A stretch of 64,000 bases of DNA, taken from Candidatus Kaelpia imicola (lineage in GTDB: Bacteria > Omnitrophota > Gorgyraeia > Kaelpiales > Kaelpiaceae). A model generated the notes under the pieces. The model was not told where the DNA came from. It was given only the letters and a program-made list of their open reading frames with translations, and ran no database searches. Both the position numbers and the translations under genes were made by a program. Below, in pieces: positions 3,274 through 56,008 of the stretch (its first letter is position 1; the number at the start of each line of letters is the position of its first letter). The DNA is taken from assembly GCA_030765505.1 (NCBI GenBank), contig JAVCCL010000018.1, positions 1,064 through 65,063 of the forward strand. Direction: 5' to 3'.

Positions 3274-3485
3274 TTATAGTCCATCTATGTTGTTTATTGA
3301 GAATAAAACATACTGGATATAGAAATCTTTAATTCTACGCAGGATTTTTAAATTGATGGTTTTTATTCCAAGGAGTATCATTTACCTTTAGACAGTAAAG
3401 TTTTGTAAGGAGAGAAAGAGAGTTCTCATAATTGGGAGTTTTAAGGCAAAGAGGCAAAAGACGGCATTAAGCAAGGAGGTTTTTA

Positions 3486-5627
3486 ATGTCTAAATTGATA
3501 TTTAAAAATTACGGCGGCAGCTACCAGCTTAGAATTCAAAATGCTCAGGATTTGGAGAAGATTCAGGTTCTTGATGATGCGCATTGGGCAGCTACCAGCA
3601 TTCCAATTGACAGTCTCAATTGCGATTGTGCATTTGCCTCTTATGTAGATACAGATAAAAATGGCCGCATAAGGACTAACGAGCTTAGGGCGGCTTTAGT
3701 ATGGTTATTTCGATTTCTTGCCAATCGCAGTCATCTCTCCGAAGGCACTGAGATACTAAACTTAGAGGATATTGATATTAGTCACCTCCAAGGTCAAAAA
3801 TTAAAAGCTTCAGCAGAGTTAATTTTAACCAATCTTAACTCTCTAAACACACAGGAGATTAGCTTAGCTCAGGTACGGGATGTACAAAGCATTATGGCTA
3901 ACATGGCGAATAATGGTGATGGTATTATTCCTCCTGAAGTCACAACTGACTTTGATCTGTCTCAATTCATCACCTCGGTCATGGAGACTGCAGGTTCTAC
4001 TTTAGATATCTGCGGTAAGCCGGGGATTAACCAAGAGCAGCTTGAGATATTCTTCCAGGAGGCTGAAAGTTATCTTGCATGGCAAAAAAGGGGAGAGATT
4101 CCTAAAGGAGATAAAACTACAGAGATTATGTTTTGGGGAACCGAAACGCCGCAAGCTTATGAGTCGATGGTTAACTTAGAATGGAAGCTTGACCAATATT
4201 TTGCACAGTGTGCAATGGTCAAGTTCGATAAACGGGCGATAGTCCAGATGCAGCTTCGCCAGAAGGAGCTTGAGGAAATCGATTTTAGGGATAAGTCAAT
4301 AATGGAATCCCAGCTTAAAGACGCTCCTCTGGCTTTACCGAATCCAGAAGGTATTCTGGATTTAGAGGCGATGATCAATCCCGAATATGTTGAGTGCCTG
4401 TTTGAATTTAGGGAGAAGGTTCTAAAGCACGCCCTTGGAGAGCCGGTTAAGCAGTTTACTGAAAAACAGTGGAATAAGGTAAAAGATATTTTTATTCCAT
4501 ATAGAATATGGTTAAAAAGTAAGCAGGGTGTGAAAGTAGAAAAGCTGGGTCAAGAGAGACTGCGTACCTATCTTAAGGGACCGTACAGGCGAGAGGCGAG
4601 TGAGTTGATTGCAAAGGATCTGGCTGCGGCTGATGATTTAAACCAGCTACATAATTTGGAAAAACTGATTCTTTATCAGAGATGGTTAATGGAACTGGCG
4701 AACAATTTTGTCAGTTTTACAAATTTTTATTCTCCTCAACATCGTTCCCTCCTTGAAATGGGGAGATTAGTAATTGATGGCAGGGAGATGACTTTTACAA
4801 TGAAAGTTCAGGATAGACTCTCCCATAAAAAAATAGCAAAAAACAGCTTTATCTACCTGCTCTATTTGGAGATTACCGGCCGTCAGGAGAAAGATATTAA
4901 ATTTGAGATTGTGATTGCGGTAACTTCTGGGAGCACAGGCCGATTGCGTATCGGTAAACGCGGTATCTTTTTTACCATAGACGGTATAGAGTGGGATGCT
5001 GAGGTAGTAGATGTTGTGGAAAACCCTATCAGTCTCTGGGAATCAGTGAGAGCACCTTTTAAGCAAATTACTAATCTGGTGAAAAAACAGATAGATAAAT
5101 TCAGTAAATCCCGTCAAGATAAATTGGAAACAGCCATCTCTTCTCCTGGAGGGTCAGGTATAGTACGCGATCTCTTATTAGGCGGAGGTGTGGCTATTGC
5201 AGTTCTTGGTTCGGCATTTGCTTATATTACTAATGTACTTTCTCAGGTCAAACTGGTTCATATTTTGGGTATGTTAGCGGGGGTAGGGGGTATTATCTTA
5301 TTGCCGGGTATGATTATAGGTTTCACCAAGATATGCAAACGGGATATGAGTGTTCTTTTGGAAGCATCGGGTTGGGCGGTAAATGTACAGATGCGGTTAA
5401 ATACTACCTTAGGGCGGCTTTTCACCCATACGCCATGTTTGCCGAAAGGTACATCTAGAGAACGAAGAGATGTAGCGGTACAGTTTGTAAAAAAGCTTGG
5501 TTATACTTCCTTCTACCCAAAAAAGTTGTTTATGATAGTTTTAATTATTACTTTTATTATCCTTTGCTTGATATTGTTTCTGGGTACATATTCTGAACCA
5601 AAGTCATTATTTAACATTTTTAAGTAG
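3486..5627 (+). CDS. Large hypothetical membrane protein with a canonical EF-hand Ca-binding loop and three C-terminal TM helices
   Basis: 713-aa ORF with GGAGG upstream. The loop DTDKNGRIRTNE fits the D-x-[DN]-x-[DN]-G-x-[ILV]-x-x-x-E EF-hand pattern. Hydrophobic stretches occur near aa 540-600 and 685-705. No other family was recognised. Confidence 0.6.
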   Translation: MSKLIFKNYGGSYQLRIQNAQDLEKIQVLDDAHWAATSIPIDSLNCDCAFASYVDTDKNGRIRTNELRAALVWLFRFLANRSHLSEGTEILNLEDIDISHLQGQKLKASAELILTNLNSLNTQEISLAQVRDVQSIMANMANNGDGIIPPEVTTDFDLSQFITSVMETAGSTLDICGKPGINQEQLEIFFQEAESYLAWQKRGEIPKGDKTTEIMFWGTETPQAYESMVNLEWKLDQYFAQCAMVKFDKRAIVQMQLRQKELEEIDFRDKSIMESQLKDAPLALPNPEGILDLEAMINPEYVECLFEFREKVLKHALGEPVKQFTEKQWNKVKDIFIPYRIWLKSKQGVKVEKLGQERLRTYLKGPYRREASELIAKDLAAADDLNQLHNLEKLILYQRWLMELANNFVSFTNFYSPQHRSLLEMGRLVIDGREMTFTMKVQDRLSHKKIAKNSFIYLLYLEITGRQEKDIKFEIVIAVTSGSTGRLRIGKRGIFFTIDGIEWDAEVVDVVENPISLWESVRAPFKQITNLVKKQIDKFSKSRQDKLETAISSPGGSGIVRDLLLGGGVAIAVLGSAFAYITNVLSQVKLVHILGMLAGVGGIILLPGMIIGFTKICKRDMSVLLEASGWAVNVQMRLNTTLGRLFTHTPCLPKGTSRERRDVAVQFVKKLGYTSFYPKKLFMIVLIITFIILCLILFLGTYSEPKSLFNIFK

Positions 5628-5834: not shown

Positions 5835-8186
5835 GTGTTATTTATGTTACAATATTTAGAAATGAGAAACCTTTATTCGGACTATACCCAGAATATTCTT
5901 TGGTTAATAGAAGAGAGTAAATGGGCAAGAAAGCTGCAAAGTATACGGGAAGCCCAGTTTACTCTGGGGAACGGTTATTTGGGTATCAGGGGGATTTATG
6001 AAGAGATTCCTTATGATTGCCATCCCGGTACTTATATTGCCGGAATTTACGATAAGATGGCTGCCCAGGTTTCGAAAATAGTTAATTTACCCAATCCTAT
6101 TAGTTTTAAACTTACCGTGAAGGGGGAGAAACTCGATGTTATTGCCATGGATGTTCTTAGGCACAAAAGAACTCTTAATATGAAAAAGGGGGTATTACTC
6201 AGACATACTATATATAAAAATAGTAAAGGTAAGAATTTTGACTATCAATCGTTACGTTTTGTTTCCCAGCTGGATAAAAATATCGGTGTTATACAGGTTG
6301 CATTCACCCCTCTTAATGCAGGGTGTGAGGTTGATATCAGTACGAGTATCGATACCGCTGTTACTAATGTAGGTGCGGTAGCTGAGGGGAGACGGAAGCA
6401 TTTCCGGGTTAAAGAACTGGGTCAGCATCGAGGGACTGAGTATCTTGTCGCAGAGGCTTTGGAGAAAAAATATTCGATAGTCTATTGGTCTGGATTGTAC
6501 TATCAAGTTAATGGTAGAAAAATAATTGCCAGAGATAATATATTTCGTTTGAAGGTTAAAAAAAATCAGACTGTTGTATTTACCAAAATTTTTTGCATTA
6601 AACATTTTAATCACAACAATGATTATACTGCCCAGAAGAATGATGCCTTTGAAATTTTTTATACCGCTTTTCGGACTGGATTCAATATCTTGTTGAAAAA
6701 CCATATAACTGCCTGGGAACGGTTATGGAGGAGAGCGGATATTGTTATTGAAGGAAGAGCAAATATTCAGCAAAAACTGCGCTTCAATATTTATCATATG
6801 CTTATCTGCGCTCATTGCAACCAGGGGTTTTCGAGTATTGGAGCGCGGACCTTAAGCGGAGAGGGTTACCGCGGACATATCTTTTGGGATGCGGAAATCT
6901 TTCTTCTCCCTTTCTATCTATTCACTTTTCCTCAAGTAGCGAAAAATATGCTGCTCTACCGCTATCAAAGGCTTGATCAGGCGCGGGCAATTGCCAAAAG
7001 AGGAGGTTTTCAAGGAGCTCAATTTCCCTGGGAATCGGCAGGAACAGGGGAAGAAGAGACTCCCGAATGGGCTAGAGATATCGACAGAACAATTATCAAG
7101 ATTCATACCCATGAAATGGAACATCACATCAACGCCGATATATCCTATGCTGTTTACAGATATTATATTGCAACAGGAGATGTAAAATTTATCGAGAAAT
7201 ATGGCTGTGAAATGCTTGTAGAGACGGCGCGGTTTTGGGCCTCGCGTGTTCAGTGGAATGAGAAAAAACAGAGATATGAAATCAGGCATGTTATCGGTCC
7301 CGATGAGTTTCATATCGACGTTAATAATAATGCTTTTACCAATATGATGGCAAAGTGGAATTTGCTCAGTGCCTATAAAACGTGCAATATGCTTAAGAAA
7401 GATTCTGATTTCTATACCTTATTGAAAGCCAAACTGAATCTTAAAGAGCAGGAAGTAAAGTCATGGAAGAAAATTGCTTCTAAAATATGTGTCCTCAGCA
7501 ACAAAAAAAATGTCATTGAGCAGTTTGGTGGTTTTTTCAAATTAAAAAAGATTATTTTATCCAGGTTTGACGAAAATGGAATTCCTCTGATACCTGCTAA
7601 ATTAAAAGCGAAAGATTTTGGGAAGACTCAGATAATAAAACAGGCTGACGTATTGATGCTTATTACGCTTTTGAACGATATTTTCAGCAAAAAAACAAAA
7701 TTAGCGAATTATAAATTTTATCTTCCCAGGACAGTGCATCGTTCCTCCTTAAGTGTTGCGACACATGTTATAAACGCCTGTGAAGTCAGGGATCTACATA
7801 GGGCCAATGAGCTGTTCAATGTTGCTTTAAATACGGATATAAGCAATCTTTACGGTAATACTTCCGAGGGAATTCATGCTGCTTCTCTGGGAGGAAGCTG
7901 GCAGGCGATAGTGTTTGGTTTTGCCGGAGTTAAGATTAAAAGAGAGAAATTATTTATCAATCCTTACCTGCCGCGTTCATGGCAGAAGTTAAATTTTCAT
8001 CTGGCCTGGAGAGGAAGTTTGATTAATTTAGAAATGACTAATGAGATAATCAAAATAAAAGTTTCTTCTTCCCGGCTCAAAGATATAGAGATAGGTATTT
8101 TTGATAAATTAGGTTCCTTTAGAACTAATAGAGTCTATACTTTCAAACGTTCTATTGAGGGTTATAAAAAAGAGGATTATTACTGA
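5835..8186 (+). CDS. Glycoside hydrolase family 65 phosphorylase (kojibiose/trehalose/maltose phosphorylase-like)
   Basis: FTLGNGYLGIRG near the N-terminus. The GEGYRGHIFWDAEIFLLPFY catalytic-region motif is typical of GH65 (alpha/alpha)6-barrel phosphorylases. The stop TGA overlaps the next ATG (ATGA). Confidence 0.88.
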   Translation: MLFMLQYLEMRNLYSDYTQNILWLIEESKWARKLQSIREAQFTLGNGYLGIRGIYEEIPYDCHPGTYIAGIYDKMAAQVSKIVNLPNPISFKLTVKGEKLDVIAMDVLRHKRTLNMKKGVLLRHTIYKNSKGKNFDYQSLRFVSQLDKNIGVIQVAFTPLNAGCEVDISTSIDTAVTNVGAVAEGRRKHFRVKELGQHRGTEYLVAEALEKKYSIVYWSGLYYQVNGRKIIARDNIFRLKVKKNQTVVFTKIFCIKHFNHNNDYTAQKNDAFEIFYTAFRTGFNILLKNHITAWERLWRRADIVIEGRANIQQKLRFNIYHMLICAHCNQGFSSIGARTLSGEGYRGHIFWDAEIFLLPFYLFTFPQVAKNMLLYRYQRLDQARAIAKRGGFQGAQFPWESAGTGEEETPEWARDIDRTIIKIHTHEMEHHINADISYAVYRYYIATGDVKFIEKYGCEMLVETARFWASRVQWNEKKQRYEIRHVIGPDEFHIDVNNNAFTNMMAKWNLLSAYKTCNMLKKDSDFYTLLKAKLNLKEQEVKSWKKIASKICVLSNKKNVIEQFGGFFKLKKIILSRFDENGIPLIPAKLKAKDFGKTQIIKQADVLMLITLLNDIFSKKTKLANYKFYLPRTVHRSSLSVATHVINACEVRDLHRANELFNVALNTDISNLYGNTSEGIHAASLGGSWQAIVFGFAGVKIKREKLFINPYLPRSWQKLNFHLAWRGSLINLEMTNEIIKIKVSSSRLKDIEIGIFDKLGSFRTNRVYTFKRSIEGYKKEDYY

Positions 8187-9370
8187 TGAAGAAATTGAAT
8201 ATTGCGCAGTTCCATTGGGGGTTTCCTCCTATTATTGGCGGGGTAGAGACTCATCTTACGATTATTTTACCTCAGATGGTAAAATTAGGTCATTGTGTGA
8301 GTCTACTTACGGGTTCGGTCGAAGGGGTTGAAGGAAGATATAAATATCAAGGTGTGGATATTTACCGCGATCCTCTTATGGATTTAAACTGGCTTTATAA
8401 GAGAGGTTTAAGCGGACTGGAGGAGGAAATCAATAAAGCTTTTACTGCTTTTTTCGACGAATCGCAGCCGGATATTATTCATGTGCATAATATGCATTAT
8501 TTCAGTTCGATTCATATAAAGTTAATAGAGCGTTCAAGTAAAGAGAGGGGTATTCCTCTTATTCTCACTGCGCATAACGTTTGGGATGAGCTTCTGTTTT
8601 TAGAGCTTTGCCATAAAATTGACTGGTCGCATATAATTGCAGTGAGCCATTTTATTAAAAAAGAGCTTATCGGAATAGGAGTGGATGATACTAAAATTAC
8701 AGTTGTGCATCATGGGATAGATCAAGATAAGTTCAAATCCGGTGTGGATACGACAAATATATTAGAGAAATATCCGCAATTGAAGGGTAAAAAAATTATA
8801 TTTCATCCGGCCAGAATCGGTCTAGCTAAGGGGTGTGATACCAGTATCAAGGCAGTCAATATTCTTAAAGATATGGTCTCGGATGTGATGTTGGTTTTGG
8901 CTGGTTCAAAGAATATTGTTGACTGGGGAGGAACTCAGCAGAAAGATATTGCTTACCTGGTGAATCTTATCAAGCATTTTAATATTGAAGAGAGTGTTTT
9001 GATAGATATGTATACCTTGGATGAAGTAAAAGAGCTGTATGAGATAAGCGATGTCTGCCTTTACCCTTCTACAGCTTCAGAGCCTTTTGGGTTGACTATG
9101 CTGGAAGCTATGGCAATGGCAAAGCCGATAGTTGTTACCGAAATGGGTGGTATGCCGGAAATTATTGATGATGGAATAAATGGATTTGTTGTTCCTGTGA
9201 GAGATTTTGAGGCTCTGGCTGCAAAAACGTATCAATTGCTGAAAAATGTAAAATTAAAAAAAAGATTTGGCTATACCGGAAGACAGATAGTCGAAGCTCG
9301 GTATACAAAAGAGAAGGTAACACAGGAGACGCTTTCAATCTATAAGAAAGCATTAAACACTGTAAACTAG
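8186..9370 (+). CDS. Glycosyltransferase family 4 (GT-B retaining)
   Basis: C-terminal E-x7-E region EPFGLTMLEAMAMAKPIVVTEMGGMPEIIDDGINGFVV and the FHPARIGLAKG motif. Start is translationally coupled to the GH65 gene. Confidence 0.82.
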   Translation: MKKLNIAQFHWGFPPIIGGVETHLTIILPQMVKLGHCVSLLTGSVEGVEGRYKYQGVDIYRDPLMDLNWLYKRGLSGLEEEINKAFTAFFDESQPDIIHVHNMHYFSSIHIKLIERSSKERGIPLILTAHNVWDELLFLELCHKIDWSHIIAVSHFIKKELIGIGVDDTKITVVHHGIDQDKFKSGVDTTNILEKYPQLKGKKIIFHPARIGLAKGCDTSIKAVNILKDMVSDVMLVLAGSKNIVDWGGTQQKDIAYLVNLIKHFNIEESVLIDMYTLDEVKELYEISDVCLYPSTASEPFGLTMLEAMAMAKPIVVTEMGGMPEIIDDGINGFVVPVRDFEALAAKTYQLLKNVKLKKRFGYTGRQIVEARYTKEKVTQETLSIYKKALNTVN

Positions 9371-50739: not shown

Positions 50740-51195
50740 ATGTATTTAGATCTTGATCTTAAATTGAAGGAAGAGGAGTTTGATGTTAAGTCAAAGAGCA
50801 GCGGAGTAAGTTTTAAAATCGGTTTTAGAAAAGAGAATTAGAGTAAACCTAATCCACTGGAACTATTTCTATCTTCACTTGCATCCTGCCTGGGAGTATT
50901 TGCGGTTAAATATTTTAAAGGAGCAAAGATTAATTTTAATAGATTGAATATTAATGTTAAGCCTAGCCTAATACAGGAAGGAAGTACGAAGCTGGATAAT
51001 ATAGTTGTATCTTTAGATACCGACGCGGAATTAGCAGACCGCAGAGAAGCTCTCTTAAGGTTCATGCACAGATGCCCGATAGATAATACTATTTTAAATA
51101 CAGATAAAATAGATATTGTCTTAAAAGAGCAGCAGACTCTCTGGTTTTTGATTAGACTATCTTATTTATTGAAATCAATTGTAAACTTATTGTAA
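50740..51195 (+). pseudogene. OsmC/Ohr-family protein with an in-frame TAG at 50839-50841
   Basis: MYLDLDLK...GFRKEN*SKPNPLELFLSSLASCLGVF... The OsmC hallmark NP.EL...ALASC lies downstream of the TAG in the same frame. The track reports only the 3' part (50944-51195). Confidence 0.65.
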
Positions 51196-51221
51196 ACATT
51201 CGGTCTAATATTATTGTCAAC
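51178..51221 (+). repeat. 44-bp composite direct repeat, copy A (ATTGTAAAC-TTATTGTAAAC-13 nt-TTATTGTCAAC)
   Basis: Matches copy B at 52254-52297 in architecture, differing at one A/C and in the spacer. Overlaps the stop codons of the convergent OsmC-like and HTH-GHKL genes. Confidence 0.7.
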
Positions 51222-52236
51222 CAATATGTTTTATCATTGCATCAATAGCTTTATTGGTATTTATGGTCTCTATTTCAATACTTGGATAGTTATTTTTAAA
51301 AACTCTAAATATCTCATCTGCAAAACCTTGTCCTATGCCTCTAACTCCTTTAAAGTTAAGTCTTATCTCTTTAAACTTTTTTAAATTGAATAATAATCTT
51401 TTAGCCTCAGAGCGGGAGAGATAGGAGTCTTTCTCCTTAGTGAAAAGATTTATAGTTACAGCGGTTTTAGAAAATTTATAATCGTATTTTTCGTTACTAT
51501 ACTCATCAAAAATAGTTTTTAATCTCTTTTTGGAGTTTTTGCTGATTGTGAAATTGACTGAAGTTCCTCTTTTGTATTTTATCTTTTGTGTAAATAGATC
51601 ATTTTTTATGTTATCAAAGGTAACCTCTATGTTATGGCTCTTTATGAGAAGCTTATTAGATGCTTTTGATGTAAAAAACAATCCTTCTCCGGAATGGTAT
51701 TTTTTTGCCGTAGTAGTTTTGCCTTTGATCAATTCTTGTAAAGCTTCGTACTCATCCTCTAAGCCGAATTTTTTTTTAATGTTTTCAAATATTCCTATCC
51801 CTTGGTCGTTTATTACAAAGTTTATATTATAGTTATCAACTTTTAATTTAACTTTGGATCTTTTTGATTTAGAATGGTCGATTGCATTATTAAGTATTTC
51901 TGTAAAGGCATAGGATAGGATATCAAATATATTTTTTCTCAGTAGATGTTTTAAATCATATTGAACATTGATTTTATTAAAAACTCTATCTTCTTTTAAA
52001 TTATGAAGTAAACAATCTCTACTTAGCTCTATCGTTAAGTTGTCTGTTTTTTTATCTTTTAGTGCATACTTTACGCCCCTAGTGGTGCCGATTTTTTTTA
52101 TTACCCCTTCAGCGATTAGTCGTTTGATATGTTTATGTATTCCTTGTCTAGTTAACCCCGTAGCTTTAGCTATCTCTTCTATTGTAATATATTCTTGTTG
52201 TCCCAACCTGCTTAAAATTCTATTTTTAATATTCAC
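51217..52236 (-). CDS. HTH - GHKL (histidine-kinase-like) ATPase - DUF4325 (STAS-like) protein
   Basis: Winged HTH EEIAKATGLTRQGIHKHIKRL. GHKL N-box NNAIDHS, G1 DQGIGI and G2 GEGLF. C-terminal ...LNFKGVRGIGQGFADEIFRVF resembles DUF4325. Preferred start is GTG at 52236 (MNIKNRILSRL...). The track's TTG at 52296 would translate the repeat array. The gene is very AT-rich. Confidence 0.65.
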   Translation of the reverse strand: MNIKNRILSRLGQQEYITIEEIAKATGLTRQGIHKHIKRLIAEGVIKKIGTTRGVKYALKDKKTDNLTIELSRDCLLHNLKEDRVFNKINVQYDLKHLLRKNIFDILSYAFTEILNNAIDHSKSKRSKVKLKVDNYNINFVINDQGIGIFENIKKKFGLEDEYEALQELIKGKTTTAKKYHSGEGLFFTSKASNKLLIKSHNIEVTFDNIKNDLFTQKIKYKRGTSVNFTISKNSKKRLKTIFDEYSNEKYDYKFSKTAVTINLFTKEKDSYLSRSEAKRLLFNLKKFKEIRLNFKGVRGIGQGFADEIFRVFKNNYPSIEIETINTNKAIDAMIKHIG

Positions 52237-52243
52237 GGTAATA

Positions 52244-52272
52244 ATTTTAACATATTGTAAACTTATTGTCAA
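52244..52272 (-). promoter_or_regulatory. Near-consensus promoter inside direct-repeat copy B (TTGACA-17-TAAAAT on the minus strand)
   Basis: Minus-strand TTGACA is the reverse complement of TGTCAA at 52267-52272. TAAAAT is the reverse complement of 52244-52249, 7 nt before the GTG start at 52236. Confidence 0.45.
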
Positions 52273-52297
52273 CCTTGCATTAAATATTATTGTCAAC
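52254..52297 (+). repeat. 44-bp composite direct repeat, copy B (ATTGTAAAC-TTATTGTCAAC-13 nt-TTATTGTCAAC)
   Basis: See copy A. Lies in the 5' region of the minus-strand HTH-GHKL gene. Confidence 0.7.
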
Positions 52298-52428: not shown

Positions 52429-52788
52429 ATGAGAAATGGCAAGGTTTTTATCTCTTTGTTTTTAATCTTTTGCTGCCTATCGTTTATTTTTAATGAAGTA
52501 TCTTCTGCACATTCCCCCGAACGGGTAGAGATTAAATTCGTAGGCAGCCTGCTTAAAATTAAGGTATACCATAGCGTGGGAAATACAAATATGCATTATG
52601 TAAAATATATTAACGTATATGTAAATGGGAAGTGGGTTGCTAAGCAGCGTTTCTTCTCCCAGCAGTATGACAGTTATCAAGAGGCGGTCTTTAATATCCC
52701 GGACTTAAAAGCCAAAGATGTACTTCTGGTAATAGCCCATTGCAGTAGAAAGGGAAGAATAGATAAATCAATAATAGCTCCGAATTGA
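52429..52788 (+). CDS. Secreted small protein, paralog 1, with superoxide-reductase-like (desulfoferrodoxin Fe-domain-like) motifs
   Basis: Signal peptide, then AHSPE...VYHSVGNTNMHYVKYINVYV...AHCSRKG. AGGAGAG upstream. Confidence 0.5.
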   Translation: MRNGKVFISLFLIFCCLSFIFNEVSSAHSPERVEIKFVGSLLKIKVYHSVGNTNMHYVKYINVYVNGKWVAKQRFFSQQYDSYQEAVFNIPDLKAKDVLLVIAHCSRKGRIDKSIIAPN

Positions 52789-53132
52789 TGATTAGAATAA
52801 GAAAGATTACGGTTTTGGTCTTCTGCTTATCCTCCTTGCTCTTAACTGTTAGTTTTGCCCATCCTCCCTGGAAGATAACAATAGAGACCCGGGGTAAAGA
52901 TATAGAGGTAACTGTATATCATGAGGTGGCTGACCCTGAAGAGCATTATATAGAGAGAATAGATGTATACTTAAATGGCATCAGACATGCGGACATGGAG
53001 TTTTCTACTCAAACAGACGATCTCCAGATTGTAAGGCTTAGTCTTCCCCCTTTGAAAAAAGGAGATTTTATAGATGTTATGGCCTTTTGTAATAGAGGGG
53101 GAGAGCTAATTGAAAATTTGACTGTAGAATAA
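52785..53132 (+). CDS. Secreted small protein, paralog 2, with superoxide-reductase-like motifs
   Basis: Signal peptide, then AHPPW...VYHEVADPEEHYIERIDVYL...AFCNRGGEL. Compare SOR KHVPVIE...AHPMEEKHYIQWIEL...YCNIHGHW. Overlaps paralog 1 by 4 nt. Confidence 0.5.
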   Translation: MMIRIRKITVLVFCLSSLLLTVSFAHPPWKITIETRGKDIEVTVYHEVADPEEHYIERIDVYLNGIRHADMEFSTQTDDLQIVRLSLPPLKKGDFIDVMAFCNRGGELIENLTVE

Positions 53133-53566: not shown

Positions 53567-56008
53567 ATGAGAAAAAAAACAAGCTTACAATATAGACCAG
53601 AAGCAAAGAGACTTCTGGTTTTTCTTTTAGCAGCTCTCTTACTAACTTCCTTAAGCCCTGCATTATATGCTGCCGGTAGAGACTCTTCCATTGAAGAGGA
53701 GAGAGCAAAGGCTCAGAAGTTAATCCAGCAGGAAGAGAAGGAAGATAGGCGTGAGAAGCAGGCCAGAATAAACAGCCTTTATAAAGAAGCACTCTCTTTC
53801 TATTACGAAGATAATCTAAGAGCAGCTCAGGAGACATTTGAATTGATTCTCCTTATAGCTCCGGATGAGAAAAAAGCAAATAGTTTTATAGAGAGTAAGA
53901 TTCCTGCAAGATCTGAAAAGTTAGTAGAGTTAAAACAGAGAGAGGCAGAGAGAGAAGCAAAGAAGAGGGAAGAGGAGCTTAAGCGTTTAAGAGCCAGGGC
54001 AGAGAGAGAGGCTAAGAGACAGATAGAAGAGCAGGAGCGTGACCAGAAAAAGGCAGAGCTTGAGAGAGAACGTGCCCAGCGTGAAGCAGAGCGTATAAGA
54101 GAGAGACAGAGCATAGAGGAAGAGAAGCAGGCTAAGACAGCAGAGAGAGAGAGGAAGCGTGCTGATAAGGAAGCAGAATTAGAGAGAAAACGCGCAGAGA
54201 AAGAAGCTAAAAGAGCAAGGCAGGATAGAGTAGGTGAGATTTGTGAAGAAGCACTATCTTATTACAAAGAAGGTAATATAGACCAGTCTATAAATTCATT
54301 CCAGCAGGTTCTTAAATTAGATCCGGATAATAAGAGAGCAGAGAGCTACTTAAATAATAAGATTCCTGCTAAGAGAGAGCGCCTTAATGAGATTGCAGAG
54401 CGCGAAAGAGAGAGTCAGAGAGTAGAGAAAGAGAAAGAACTATCTAAATTAAAAGAGAGAGCCCAAAAAGAGGCTCAAGCTCAAGAGAGAGAGCTGGCCA
54501 AAGAGAAGAAGCTTGCTGAAGCTATAGCCGGGAAGCAGGCCAAGAGAATAGAGAGAGAGAAGAAGCTTGCTGAGGCTGAAGCCGAGAAGCATGCCAAGAG
54601 AATAGAAAAAGAGAAGAGGTTGGCTGGAAAAGAGGCTAAGAAGCAGGCTGAGATAGCAGAGAAAAAGGCTCAAAAAGAAACAGCGAAGTTAGAGAGAGAG
54701 AAGAAGCGCGCTGAAAAAGAGGCTCAAAAACAGGCTAAGAAATTAGAGAGAGAGAAGAGGTTGGCTGGAAAAGAGGCTAAGAAGCAGGCTGAGATAGCAG
54801 AGAGAGAGGCTCAAAAGGAATCTAAAAAGTTAGAGATAGAGCAAAAAAGCGCCAGTATAGATACTAAGAGAGAGACAGCAAGGTTAGAAAAAGAGAAGAG
54901 GTTGGCTGAAAAAGAAGCTAAGAAGCAGGCTAAGATAGCAGAGAAAGAAGCCAGAAAACAGGCAAAAATAGCTAAGAAAGAAGCTAAGAAACTTGCAAAA
55001 GCAGAAGGAGTAGAGGAGGAAGTTAAAGAGGTAAGAGAGAAAAAAGAGAAGGCTCCTCGAGTAATCAGTGAAGATAAGCTTAAGAGAAAAGCAGAGGTAG
55101 AAGAGAAGCTTAGAAAGAAAAGAGAGGCCAGGGAAGCAAAGCTTGCCAAGAAAAAAGGGAAGCTGGAAGATAAGAAAGCTGAGAAAATTAAGACAAGAGA
55201 AGATAAAATAAGAGTTGAAGAAGAAGCCCGTATTGCAGCTACGCAGAGCGATTTCATTACTATAAACAGAGTTGTTACTACGCCTGGCTTGGTTCAGGAT
55301 GCAGATGCTTTTGTTGAGGCTAAAAGAGAAGAAGAGTCTATCGCTCTATATAACTACGCGTTAGATGTAACAAAAGATAAATCAATCAGGAAAGAGATTG
55401 CGCTTAAGAAGAGAGCTGCTTTAAAGGCGATAAAGAAGAAAGATAAGCAGAAGGCAAGAGACGAGTATAAGCAGGAAGTGAAGAAAAAGCATGAGACTCA
55501 TCGTGCCAAGATAGAGGCTAAGAGAGAGCAGCGTACTCAAAAGAAAGAGAATAGTAGAAAGATAAACGACCTCTATAGAGAAGCGCTTTCATTATATTAT
55601 GATAATAAGTTTGATGAAGCAGAGGCTAAGTTTAATGAGATCTTAGGATTCTCACCTGATGAAAAAAGAGCCAGGAAGTTTATAGACGTTAAGATTCCTG
55701 CAAGAAAAGAGCAGCTTGAGAATTTAGAAAATAAAACTAAATTACGTAAAGATAAAATAGAAGAGAAGAGCCGTGCTGATAGAGAGGCTAAGAAGCAGGC
55801 TGAGATAGCAGAGAGAGAGGCTCAAAAAGAAACAGCGAAGTTAGAGAGAGAGAAGAAGCGTGCTGAAAAAGAGGCTCAAAAACAGGCTAAGAAATTAGAG
55901 AAAGAAAAGAGGTTAGCTGATAAAGAAGCTGAGAAGGCTCGCATTAAAGCTGAAAGAGAAGAGAAGAAGCAGGAAAAAGAAGAGGAAATTCAGGGAGATA
56001 TAAAATAG
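53567..56008 (+). CDS. Secreted Lys/Glu-rich coiled-coil protein with three conserved TPR-like modules
   Basis: Signal peptide MRKKTSLQYRPEAKRLLVFLLAALLLTSLSPALYA. Three copies of an approximately 55-aa module, each ending in KIPA[RK]xExL (aa ~60-120, ~225-285, ~635-695). Long charged low-complexity helical runs (AKKQAEIAE..., EKKRAEKEAQKQAKKLE...) lie between them. Stop TAG at 56006-56008 directly abuts the tpsB ATG at 56009. Confidence 0.7.
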   Translation: MRKKTSLQYRPEAKRLLVFLLAALLLTSLSPALYAAGRDSSIEEERAKAQKLIQQEEKEDRREKQARINSLYKEALSFYYEDNLRAAQETFELILLIAPDEKKANSFIESKIPARSEKLVELKQREAEREAKKREEELKRLRARAEREAKRQIEEQERDQKKAELERERAQREAERIRERQSIEEEKQAKTAERERKRADKEAELERKRAEKEAKRARQDRVGEICEEALSYYKEGNIDQSINSFQQVLKLDPDNKRAESYLNNKIPAKRERLNEIAERERESQRVEKEKELSKLKERAQKEAQAQERELAKEKKLAEAIAGKQAKRIEREKKLAEAEAEKHAKRIEKEKRLAGKEAKKQAEIAEKKAQKETAKLEREKKRAEKEAQKQAKKLEREKRLAGKEAKKQAEIAEREAQKESKKLEIEQKSASIDTKRETARLEKEKRLAEKEAKKQAKIAEKEARKQAKIAKKEAKKLAKAEGVEEEVKEVREKKEKAPRVISEDKLKRKAEVEEKLRKKREAREAKLAKKKGKLEDKKAEKIKTREDKIRVEEEARIAATQSDFITINRVVTTPGLVQDADAFVEAKREEESIALYNYALDVTKDKSIRKEIALKKRAALKAIKKKDKQKARDEYKQEVKKKHETHRAKIEAKREQRTQKKENSRKINDLYREALSLYYDNKFDEAEAKFNEILGFSPDEKRARKFIDVKIPARKEQLENLENKTKLRKDKIEEKSRADREAKKQAEIAEREAQKETAKLEREKKRAEKEAQKQAKKLEKEKRLADKEAEKARIKAEREEKKQEKEEEIQGDIK
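54632..54767 (+). repeat. Intragenic near-identical DNA repeat, copy 1 (~136 bp)
   Basis: GAGGCTAAGAAGCAGGCTGAGATAGCAGAG...GAAATTAGAG...GAGGTTGGCTG recurs at 55784-55919 with a handful of mismatches. Partial further copies lie at about 54526-54610 and 54775-54815. Confidence 0.7.
55784..55919 (+). repeat. Intragenic near-identical DNA repeat, copy 2 (~136 bp)
   Basis: See 54632-54767. Confidence 0.7.

Follow-up and report, generated by a model that had tools for sequence, protein, structure and literature searches.

Why should a single bacterial gene be closed in by two nearly identical 44-nt sequences? The question is raised by a locus of Candidatus Kaelpia imicola (phylum Omnitrophota; assembly GCA_030765505.1, contig JAVCCL010000018.1, positions 1,064 to 65,063), where a gene for a protein with a winged helix-turn-helix (wHTH), a GHKL ATP-binding and a DUF4325 domain lies between two direct repeats. 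The whole 64,000-nt stretch is referred to as the window. A first-pass annotation of this DNA had left two explanations side by side: the repeats could be att-like ends of a minimal cassette integrated at the 3' end of an OsmC gene, or twin operator arrays for the encoded protein. Judging from the sequence evidence, we consider it probable that the repeats are paired operator arrays for the protein encoded between them, serving the autoregulation of its gene.

Two three-iteron arrays around one gene

The repeats are real and far from chance. Read directly, copies A and B (Table 1) are direct repeats with 37 of 44 positions identical and a start-to-start distance of 1076 nt, and in a repeat search of the window this pair formed the top-ranked family, extendable to 59 nt at 76% identity. 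Each copy is made of three GTTGACAAT-type iterons in the same orientation, with start-to-start spacings of 24 and 11 nt; in the orientation of the gene, the array reads GTTGACAATAA, a 13-nt spacer, GTT(G/T)ACAATAA and then GTTTACAAT. The repeat pair, the three-iteron architecture and the distance reported by the first-pass annotation are thus confirmed. The 11-mer TTATTGTMAAC occurs four times in the window, always within A or B, against 0.08 expected occurrences, and none of 100 shuffles reached four; the 9-mer ATTGTMAAC occurs eight times, six of them in A/B (1.08 expected). A relaxed scan for triple arrays over the whole window returned A and B as the only high-scoring arrays. Within these 64 kb, the 11-mer is therefore not the frequent, generic AT-rich motif that had been considered as an objection.

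The single minus-strand gene between the arrays is as AT-rich as had been claimed, with a GC content of 29.0% vs 38.5% in the 3-kb flanks. The upstream array, copy B, is interwoven with a promoter of this gene, which had been recognised as near-consensus and proved to match the consensus at 11 of 12 positions (TTGACA, 17 nt, TAAAAT), with an extended TG; the GTG start, whose position is common to the orthologues, follows 7 nt past the -10 hexamer. Iteron 2 supplies the -35 hexamer and iteron 3 fills the promoter spacer, so a protein bound to them must occlude RNA polymerase. Copy A had been said to overlap the stop codons of both convergent genes. For the enclosed gene this holds, the TGA lying inside iteron 1, while the overlap with the OsmC frame is secondary and stems from the decay of OsmC.

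Table 1. Features discussed in the text; coordinates are those of the window, residue ranges those of the protein
Feature	Coordinates	Strand	Details
Regulator gene	51217..52236	minus	339 aa; GTG start 52236-52234; TGA stop 51219-51217
Domains of its product			wHTH ~4-50; SpoIIAB/RsbW-like GHKL ATP-binding ~100-232; STAS-like DUF4325 ~278-330
Copy A, downstream array	51178..51221	minus	ATTGTAAACTTATTGTAAACATTCGGTCTAATATTATTGTCAAC; sequence read directly
Copy A, iteron 1 GTTGACAATAA	51221-51211	minus	holds the last sense codon of the gene and its TGA stop
Copy A, iteron 2 GTTTACAATAA	51197-51187	minus	preceded by a 13-nt spacer
Copy A, iteron 3 GTTTACAAT	51186-51178	minus	no usable -10 after it
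Copy B, upstream array	52254..52297	minus	ATTGTAAACTTATTGTCAACCTTGCATTAAATATTATTGTCAAC; sequence read directly
Copy B, iteron 1 GTTGACAATAA	52297-52287	minus	
Copy B, iteron 2 GTTGACAATAA	52273-52263	minus	after a 13-nt spacer; its TTGACA is the -35
Copy B, iteron 3 GTTTACAAT	52262-52254	minus	within the promoter spacer
Predicted sigma-70-type promoter	52244..52272	minus	-35 TTGACA 52272-52267; 17-nt spacer; extended -10 TGtTAAAAT, -10 at 52249-52244
OsmC-like gene, convergent, apparently decayed	50740..51195	plus	in-frame TAG 50839-50841; native stop lost
Solo-array loci			L103, L109, L111, L119, L121, L122, L124, L128, L132, L134, L141, L155, L168

The product of the gene is 100% identical to the NCBI entry 'DUF4325 domain-containing protein [Candidatus Kaelpia imicola]' from a metagenome-assembled genome (Omnitrophota). 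Pfam recognised DUF4325 (7e-14), HTH_24 (5e-10), HATPase_c (2.5e-8) and also HATPase_c_2; by this domain order and a length of ~340 aa, the protein belongs to a PF14213-containing wHTH-HATPase_c-DUF4325 family. Its middle domain has the Bergerat fold of GHKL proteins with the N box (E..NN..H/D), G1 (DxGxG) and G2 (GxG), and the respective residues (E113, N116, N117 and H121; D144, G146 and G148; G183 and G185) are invariant in 24 diverse homologues, as is a SRSEA motif with S274 and S276 ahead of the STAS-like domain. With the AlphaFold2 model of the protein (mean pLDDT 82, pTM 0.69) as the query, the top Foldseek match was the anti-sigma-F kinase SpoIIAB (E = 8e-6, TM(target) 0.68-0.72), and the C-terminal domain matched RsbS and RsbV. 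A sequence-profile search of the PDB returned wHTH proteins alone, with AspA (the pNOB8 centromere-binding protein, E = 7e-5) and AdcR as the best, and no full-length relative. PADLOC and NCBIfam gave mainly generic HTH and histidine-kinase fragments, nearly all far under the curated cut-offs; the PADLOC matches were limited to the N-terminal HTH region, except for a marginal one (E 6e-4) in the GHKL region.

The family itself is large: at least 6571 matches with this Pfam set are 326-359 aa long, clustering at 50% leaves 656 representatives at E <= 1e-30, and at 90% identity there are at least 6,500 clusters. It extends over more than 20 phyla, and nearly all its members come from uncultured bacteria. 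Our literature search met three incidental mentions of DUF4325, none of PF14213 and no study of the family; the gene product is indeed uncharacterised, as the first-pass annotation had stated.

The arrays across phyla

Do the arrays belong to this locus or to the gene? A scan of one genome per GTDB species yielded 80 loci from more than 20 phyla, with GC contents from 31 to 69%, and these, together with the window, K. aquatica and an Elusimicrobia locus, made up 82 non-redundant loci. The triple array stands upstream of the gene in 77 of the 82 and downstream, at the stop codon, in 41, both positions being occupied in 39; elsewhere in 625 kb there are three arrays only. Upstream, TTGACA typically lies at -58, -35 and -24 from the start codon, and the iteron spacing of 22-24 + 11 nt recurs in nearly all arrays, upstream and downstream alike. 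By the combination of these features (a triple GTTGACAAT array, 22-24 + 11 nt, at -58/-35/-24), we defined a TTGACAAT subfamily, into which the window falls with its array at 52254-52297. The Elusimicrobia homologue (53% identity), in an unrelated neighbourhood, carries GGTTGACAATAAAAAG...GGTTGACAATAGGTTGACA both upstream and at its 3' end, 1079 nt apart. Where the iterons vary, they do so alike at both ends of the gene, as CTTTACAATT in L088 and GTTTACAAAAA in L013. About 24 loci, mostly from Nitrospira and Gamma-/Betaproteobacteria, have two or three tandem arrays upstream, most often 62-67 bp apart, and none downstream; thus, a second array appears to be wanted wherever it is placed. In L130 (~1570-1800) we also came across a long tandem tract (TTTTTTGACAAT)n, a simple repeat built from the iteron core.

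The surroundings of the loci are not shared in this way. All-vs-all BLAST of 519 flanking open reading frames (75 loci) gave no cluster beyond syntenic Nitrospira genes, and among 148 immediate neighbours no Pfam family occurred more than twice and no integrase or transposase family was recurrent; a sigma-factor gene was a conserved neighbour in neither set. The 148 include tRNA synthetases, DNA polymerase III alpha, Lon and queuosine synthesis genes. The gene downstream faces the array in 45 of the 75 loci and is co-directional in the other 30. The loci are chromosomal, complete chromosomes included, and OZ244846.1, CP070686.1 and CP092081.1 are examples of complete genomes with the gene.

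More distant members of the family lack the C-terminal VDN of the close homologues (see below) and have other repeats or palindromes near the gene, as might be anticipated, since cognate operators are expected to differ between distant subfamilies. Three such distant homologues (33-40% identity) were found on IMG/VR contigs. In two of them, L091 (4277-4296 / 5493-5512) and L095 (4776-4794 / 5992-6010), a 19-20-nt direct repeat AGGACAATGRCAAYTRAAT flanks the gene with a spacing of 1216 nt; in the third, L097, two 17-nt palindromes TTATAGTTSAACTATAA lie upstream of it (4914-4951).

The promoter seen in the window is a common property of upstream arrays. Among the 39 loci with flanking arrays, 36 have a -10 hexamer scoring at least 4/6 after the upstream array, 14 of them a perfect TATAAT. 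Taking all loci, the start codon comes 6-7 nt after the end of the -10 in 24 of the 42 upstream arrays with a -10 of at least 4/6, and so short a distance predicts a leaderless mRNA.

The downstream arrays, judged in the same way, are not promoters. A -10-like hexamer (score >= 4) follows 3 of 41 of them in the genome set and none of 16 in an independent metagenome sample, and in the window, the promoter scan gave nothing better than weak 9/12 matches at copy A. Over the 30 nt that come next, the upstream and downstream copies are 0.263 identical within loci and 0.266 between loci; the similarity of the copies therefore ends at the array edges, and it is the array of sites that is kept, not a copied promoter. 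Usually, iteron 1 of a downstream array is translated, GTT GAC AAT giving V-D-N, and in 65 of the 120 closest protein clusters a [V/I/L]-D-N motif stands within the final 16 residues, typically ...HVVDN(K). The frame of some homologues reads on through iteron 2 (R-L-T-I) and stops at the TGA of iteron 3; in Kaelpia, iteron 1 itself contains the TGA that serves as the stop. The downstream arrays of L020 and L037 are wholly non-coding, lying 100 and 8 nt past the stop, respectively, and they are intact.

Conservation within the arrays is concentrated on the iterons. Over the four downstream copies of Kaelpia, no variation is seen at 21 of the 24 positions that make up the three 8-nt cores, as against 3 of 16 positions in the 16-nt spacer. 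Where proteins are at least 80% identical, orthologous spacers share an identity of 0.85 upstream and 0.77 downstream, while the two copies within a locus share 0.56; each copy is therefore maintained on its own. At greater divergence the relation is reversed, the similarity within a locus (0.59) exceeding that between orthologues (~0.41), and some loci have near-identical spacers (0.93 in L020, 0.88 in L005 and L029), which indicates occasional gene conversion or re-duplication. The excess is genuine (matched in 0 of 5000 permutations), but host base composition confounds it in part, and close orthologues do not show it; we therefore treat spacer homogenisation as episodic and not as proof of copying from one template. 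Overall, the downstream array is most likely a second binding platform, as its conserved sequence suggests.

The locus in Kaelpia relatives

The history of the locus could be followed in four Kaelpia lineages. In K. aquatica, the orthologue is 75% identical and syntenic (LDH-OsmC / gene / small DFX-like genes), with arrays at a 1078-nt spacing, and two further Kaelpia-like lineages (LDH 84% and 80% identical) have the site occupied and the arrays present. Orthologous loci with the same arrangement and no repeats, which would have counted against the first-pass annotation, were thus not encountered: the Kaelpia orthologues carry arrays. A search of relatives for the repeat unit and for an empty site had also been proposed. 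The unit was indeed found together with homologues of the gene, but the search through LDH homologues produced no empty site among the Kaelpia relatives: those with 80-89% identical LDH are all occupied, and the locus of the next relative is rearranged. In that relative (LDH 69% identical), the order is LDH-ferritin-desulfoferrodoxin, and both OsmC and the module are missing; therefore, it does not represent a clean empty site.

The OsmC-like gene of K. imicola looks like a pseudogene in its alignment with that of K. aquatica: a CAG has become an in-frame TAG, and the native TAA has become CAG, so that the frame is extended by ~20 codons into copy A. The overlap of this frame with the array is hence due to the decay of OsmC and not to the geometry of a cassette. 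OsmC is intact in K. aquatica (L002), where ~67 nt of non-coding DNA separate its stop from the array, and in L224, and it is broken by frameshifts in a third Kaelpia-like lineage, L220 (1599-1983); it decays in two Kaelpia lineages while the array-gene-array module stays intact. Array, gene and array are inherited as a unit, and the common ancestor of the Kaelpia lineages sampled already had it.

Some other genes of the window may be mentioned here. Two tandem paralogues on the plus strand (52429-52788 and 52785-53132; ~115-119 aa) have signal-peptide-like N-termini, weak sub-threshold Desulfoferrodoxin-like Pfam matches and an overlapping junction TTGA (TTG start, TGA stop). Further on (53567-56008, plus strand), the AT skew rises to 0.63 and the GC skew to 0.48 in a gene whose 813-aa product has an extreme content of K, E, A and R and contains several TPR-like repeat modules (…SFYYEDN…A…FE.IL…PD..KA..F…).

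Weighing the readings against known systems

How might such an arrangement work? If the repeats are operators, the N-terminal winged helix would bind the iterons, with three wHTH domains per array, and occupancy of the upstream array would shut off the strong leaderless promoter of the gene itself, i.e., exert negative autoregulation. The downstream array would offer a second platform of the same geometry, which in other clades would be represented by the second upstream array, about six helical turns off. Most likely, the two arrays would cooperate by bridging, looping or 'handcuffing' through the dimerising SpoIIAB-like GHKL domain; possibly, the downstream array also acts as a roadblock at the 3' end. 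By analogy with the CapK/CapS system (see below), the GHKL and STAS-like domains would constitute a built-in partner switch, an ATP-dependent sensor modulating DNA binding on a signal, and we infer that phosphorylation might take part in this control. As biological output, one might think of targets at other sites or of a kinase acting on host proteins. It is the companionship of array and gene across phyla, the overlap with the gene's own promoter, the conservation of the cores and the tandem alternatives that make us favour twin operator arrays over the other explanation of the first-pass annotation.

Several observations weigh against this proposal. The protein is assigned to the iterons by their co-occurrence. 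A regulator controlling itself alone would make little biological sense, and the picture still lacks targets or an effector activity. About one third of the loci have one array only at the threshold used, so the second array is not obligatory. Intrinsic terminators are no different between the two architectures (3/38 vs 2/39), as tested for the idea that a roadblock replaces a terminator. The Nitrospira/proteobacterial class has no recognisable -10 after the proximal array, and the promoter logic may therefore differ there. At the place that manual alignment to the DSSG motif of SpoIIAA assigns to the canonical STAS phospho-acceptor serine there is a motif IGQGF, with (nearly) invariant G302, Q303 and G304 and no serine; this serine appears to be replaced, which weakens the direct analogy to CapK/CapS. 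Finally, solo arrays and duplications of host sequence, described next, hint at a mobility that operators do not explain. As to the Nitrospira loci, six of them (L040, L059, L061, L062, L077 and L170) have a conserved GTGACACCGTC after iteron 3, ~10-25 nt before the start codon, and no recognisable sigma-70 -10, so that promoter organisation may differ in this clade.

Could the repeats instead be terminal direct repeats (att-like or of the long terminal repeat kind) of a minimal one-gene mobile cassette, which recombination between them would excise or integrate, the arrays serving first of all for recombination or synapsis? The unit is found again in unrelated surroundings where no neighbour is conserved, and evidently it can be duplicated, inserted and lost. 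Two 90%-identical copies of the module on contig CAYHGV010000043.1 are similar exactly from outer iteron to outer iteron. On either side, both copies (L047, 2300-2430 and 3540-3700; L080, 3816-3940 and 5060-5216) are bordered by tandemly repeated heptanucleotides resembling CTTTACG/CCCTACG. In L056, the intact gene has no downstream array, and 4.4 kb downstream of it (8429-8640) there is a second near-identical array with ~28 nt of left flank and a decayed ~130-nt fragment of the 5' part of the gene; a decayed partial copy occurs in L117 as well. L157 (2018-4801) consists of array, gene and array, followed by a MazF/PemK-like toxin gene, a small RHH-like gene, an AbiEi-like gene and, 1.6 kb on, a third array, all arrays in the same orientation. 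When metagenomes were scanned for exact arrays, 120 stretches matched, and the 80 loci listed comprised 49 upstream and 16 downstream copies plus 14 true solo arrays lacking the gene (see the loci in Table 1). The solo arrays have perfect cores, no family gene on the contig and no -10-like hexamer, as would be expected of a product of array-by-array deletion or of a retained downstream copy; none was matched to an occupied orthologous site, and they may be deletion footprints or trans targets. Repeats of host sequence outside the arrays were seen in L033 (~42 nt, 85% identical, 3870-3912 / 5067-5110, at the 3' end of a convergent 168-aa gene), L053 (10 bp, 3912-3921 / 5057-5066, 4-5 nt from both arrays) and K. 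aquatica (a 13-mer, 2280-2292 / 3470-3482), and long flank repeats are enriched over cross-locus controls, with outliers of 10, 13 and ~42 nt at distances of 4-46 nt. The episodic homogenisation of the spacers would also fit a cassette, as would the low GC content of the gene, which lies below that of its flanks in 69 of 78 loci, the mean difference being 4.6 points. However, Pfam found no recombinase domain in the single gene of the unit, no integrase, transposase or other recombinase lies near it among the housekeeping neighbours, and Rfam (E <= 1) and tRNA scans around the locus gave nothing. There was no tblastn match in 72,556 PLSDB plasmids or 50,697 INPHARED phage genomes; 2.9 million IMG/VR viral contigs gave 11 matches of the gene; the exact 44-nt consensus array had no match in IMG/VR, the pattern being too strict to inform. 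A systematic test for target-site duplications gave no general signal (longest repeats in the 30-nt flanks of 4.9 nt within loci vs 4.5 nt across loci), and the host-sequence repeats of the three loci named are inconsistent in length and distance, most loci having none. The AT-richness of the gene was rejected as a sign of recent transfer, because its GC content follows that of the host with a slope of ~1.1. Moreover, tandem upstream arrays cannot serve as the ends of an element, and the repeat forms the gene's own promoter and putative operator and, in many homologues, its C-terminal codons. Keeping in mind that the OsmC gene of K. aquatica is intact and apart from the array, that four Kaelpia lineages are syntenic with both arrays and that orthologous copies evolve independently, we find the suggestion of att-like ends at the 3' end of OsmC not supported in that form and regard a mobile cassette as unlikely. 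A more radical version, which we consider highly improbable, is that array, gene and array form a self-contained selfish unit whose protein synapses the two identically spaced arrays and, as an ATP-driven clamp, helps its own gene to be excised, copied or re-inserted in the absence of a conventional recombinase; if this were true, the solo arrays would be footprints, and the -35/-10 elements with the leaderless start would be an expression device independent of the host and usable in any phylum. We see no indication that the arrays serve as recombination sites or the protein as a recombinase.

Other functions can be imagined for the downstream array in particular. It might be the operator of another transcription unit, either a neighbouring gene or an antisense transcript (here to OsmC), given that the second CapS site downstream of the capS gene is the promoter of the regulated operon (PMC13373217). 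The iteron core, moreover, equals a -35 hexamer, and any array is therefore a potential promoter half. Yet the scarcity of -10-like hexamers at the right spacing in both samples and at copy A, along with the unrelated downstream genes in either orientation, makes this quite unlikely. A second candidate, that copy A has no function and is left over from an ancient tandem duplication of the gene or its promoter, conserved merely by its overlap with C-terminal codons, could draw on the coding role of iteron 1 in most homologues (VVDNK) and on the decayed partial gene copies of L056 and L117. We find it very doubtful, as iterons 2 and 3 lie past the stop in the window and most loci, and still their cores and exact spacing are kept across phyla, the Kaelpia spacer diverges while the cores stay, and the wholly non-coding downstream arrays of L020 and L037 are intact. 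Least credible is a role of the arrays as replication or partition iterons, of the kind whose clusters flank rep genes in plasmids. The order iterons-gene-iterons with a promoter-overlapping upstream cluster resembles replicons of the P1/F type, and the best PDB sequence match of the wHTH is a centromere-binding protein, but the loci lie on chromosomes among housekeeping genes, PLSDB has no match, and the protein has a kinase-like GHKL and a STAS-like domain in place of a Rep fold.

Returning to paired operators, the locus would encode an autoregulated one-component regulator with a kinase/STAS switch, and its cis-architecture is unusually conserved and compact. The family would thereby gain a testable cis-regulatory model: a 9-bp core, a fixed three-site geometry, a leaderless near-consensus promoter and a second array doubling as C-terminal codons. 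The core of the putative operator has the very sequence of the sigma-70 -35 hexamer, and part of the protein is folded like an anti-sigma factor; moreover, the same operator would be kept in genomes of 31% to 69% GC. With these two features, the system could be an attractive model for the co-conservation of operator and repressor. Possibly, the array-gene unit is also a portable, host-independent cassette for regulated expression.

Among known systems, the plasmid replicons P1 (incC-repA-incA) and F (oriS-repE-incC) also have a winged-helix gene between iteron clusters of the same orientation, the upstream one overlapping the promoter and serving autorepression. In such replicons, 'handcuffing' denotes the pairing of iteron clusters by the protein (PMC5397158). 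The likeness lies in the placement of the clusters around a winged-helix gene; here, however, there is no Rep initiator and no plasmid match, the loci are chromosomal, and each cluster has three iterons at a fixed 24 + 11 spacing. Regulators of the OmpR/PhoB type bind 11-bp direct repeats, e.g., the DRu of Streptomyces PhoP (PMC2275107), and in both cases a winged helix would be set on tandem direct repeats about one helical turn apart (11 nt between iterons 2 and 3). Unlike them, the protein described here has no receiver domain, a third site lies two turns away, and a second, identical array stands at the other end of the gene. With the partner-switching modules SpoIIAB-SpoIIAA and RsbW-RsbV/RsbS, it shares the SpoIIAB fold of the middle domain, with the invariant N, G1 and G2 boxes, and an RsbS/RsbV-like C-terminal domain. 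The kinases of such modules inhibit a cognate sigma factor by binding it and phosphorylate a STAS antagonist at a conserved serine. In the present case, both domains and a DNA-binding domain form one fused protein, there is no evident sigma-factor partner, and the STAS-like domain is Pfam DUF4325, not the canonical STAS family.

The closest described system is CapK/CapS, in which the anti-sigma-type GHKL kinase CapK controls the STAS-wHTH repressor CapS (Chambers et al., EMBO J 2026, PMC13373217). CapS autoregulates from two sites, one upstream and one downstream of the capS gene, and after DNA damage phosphorylation releases it (PMC13373217). The differences are considerable: the domain order is wHTH-GHKL-STAS-like in one polypeptide here, HTH-STAS-GHKL in CapK and STAS-wHTH in CapS, and in 75 loci no conserved adjacent gene takes the place of a capS partner. 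CapK/CapS sit upstream of the immune or stress operon that they control, whereas here a variety of housekeeping genes, in either orientation, lie next to the gene; GTTGACAAT forms triple direct repeats, in place of the TTAA palindromes of CapS; and, by manual alignment, the canonical STAS phospho-serine, which in CapK/CapS is conserved where STAS helix alpha-2 starts, seems to be absent. The PDB profile search gave no sequence-level match to CapS chains. What the two systems have in common is the repertoire of an HTH, an anti-sigma-type GHKL and a STAS domain and the topology of two sites around the regulator's own gene. Thus, if the analogy holds, the protein of Candidatus Kaelpia imicola would be linked to the CapK/CapS damage-sensing switch as a circuit of kinase, STAS domain and repressor contained in one polypeptide.

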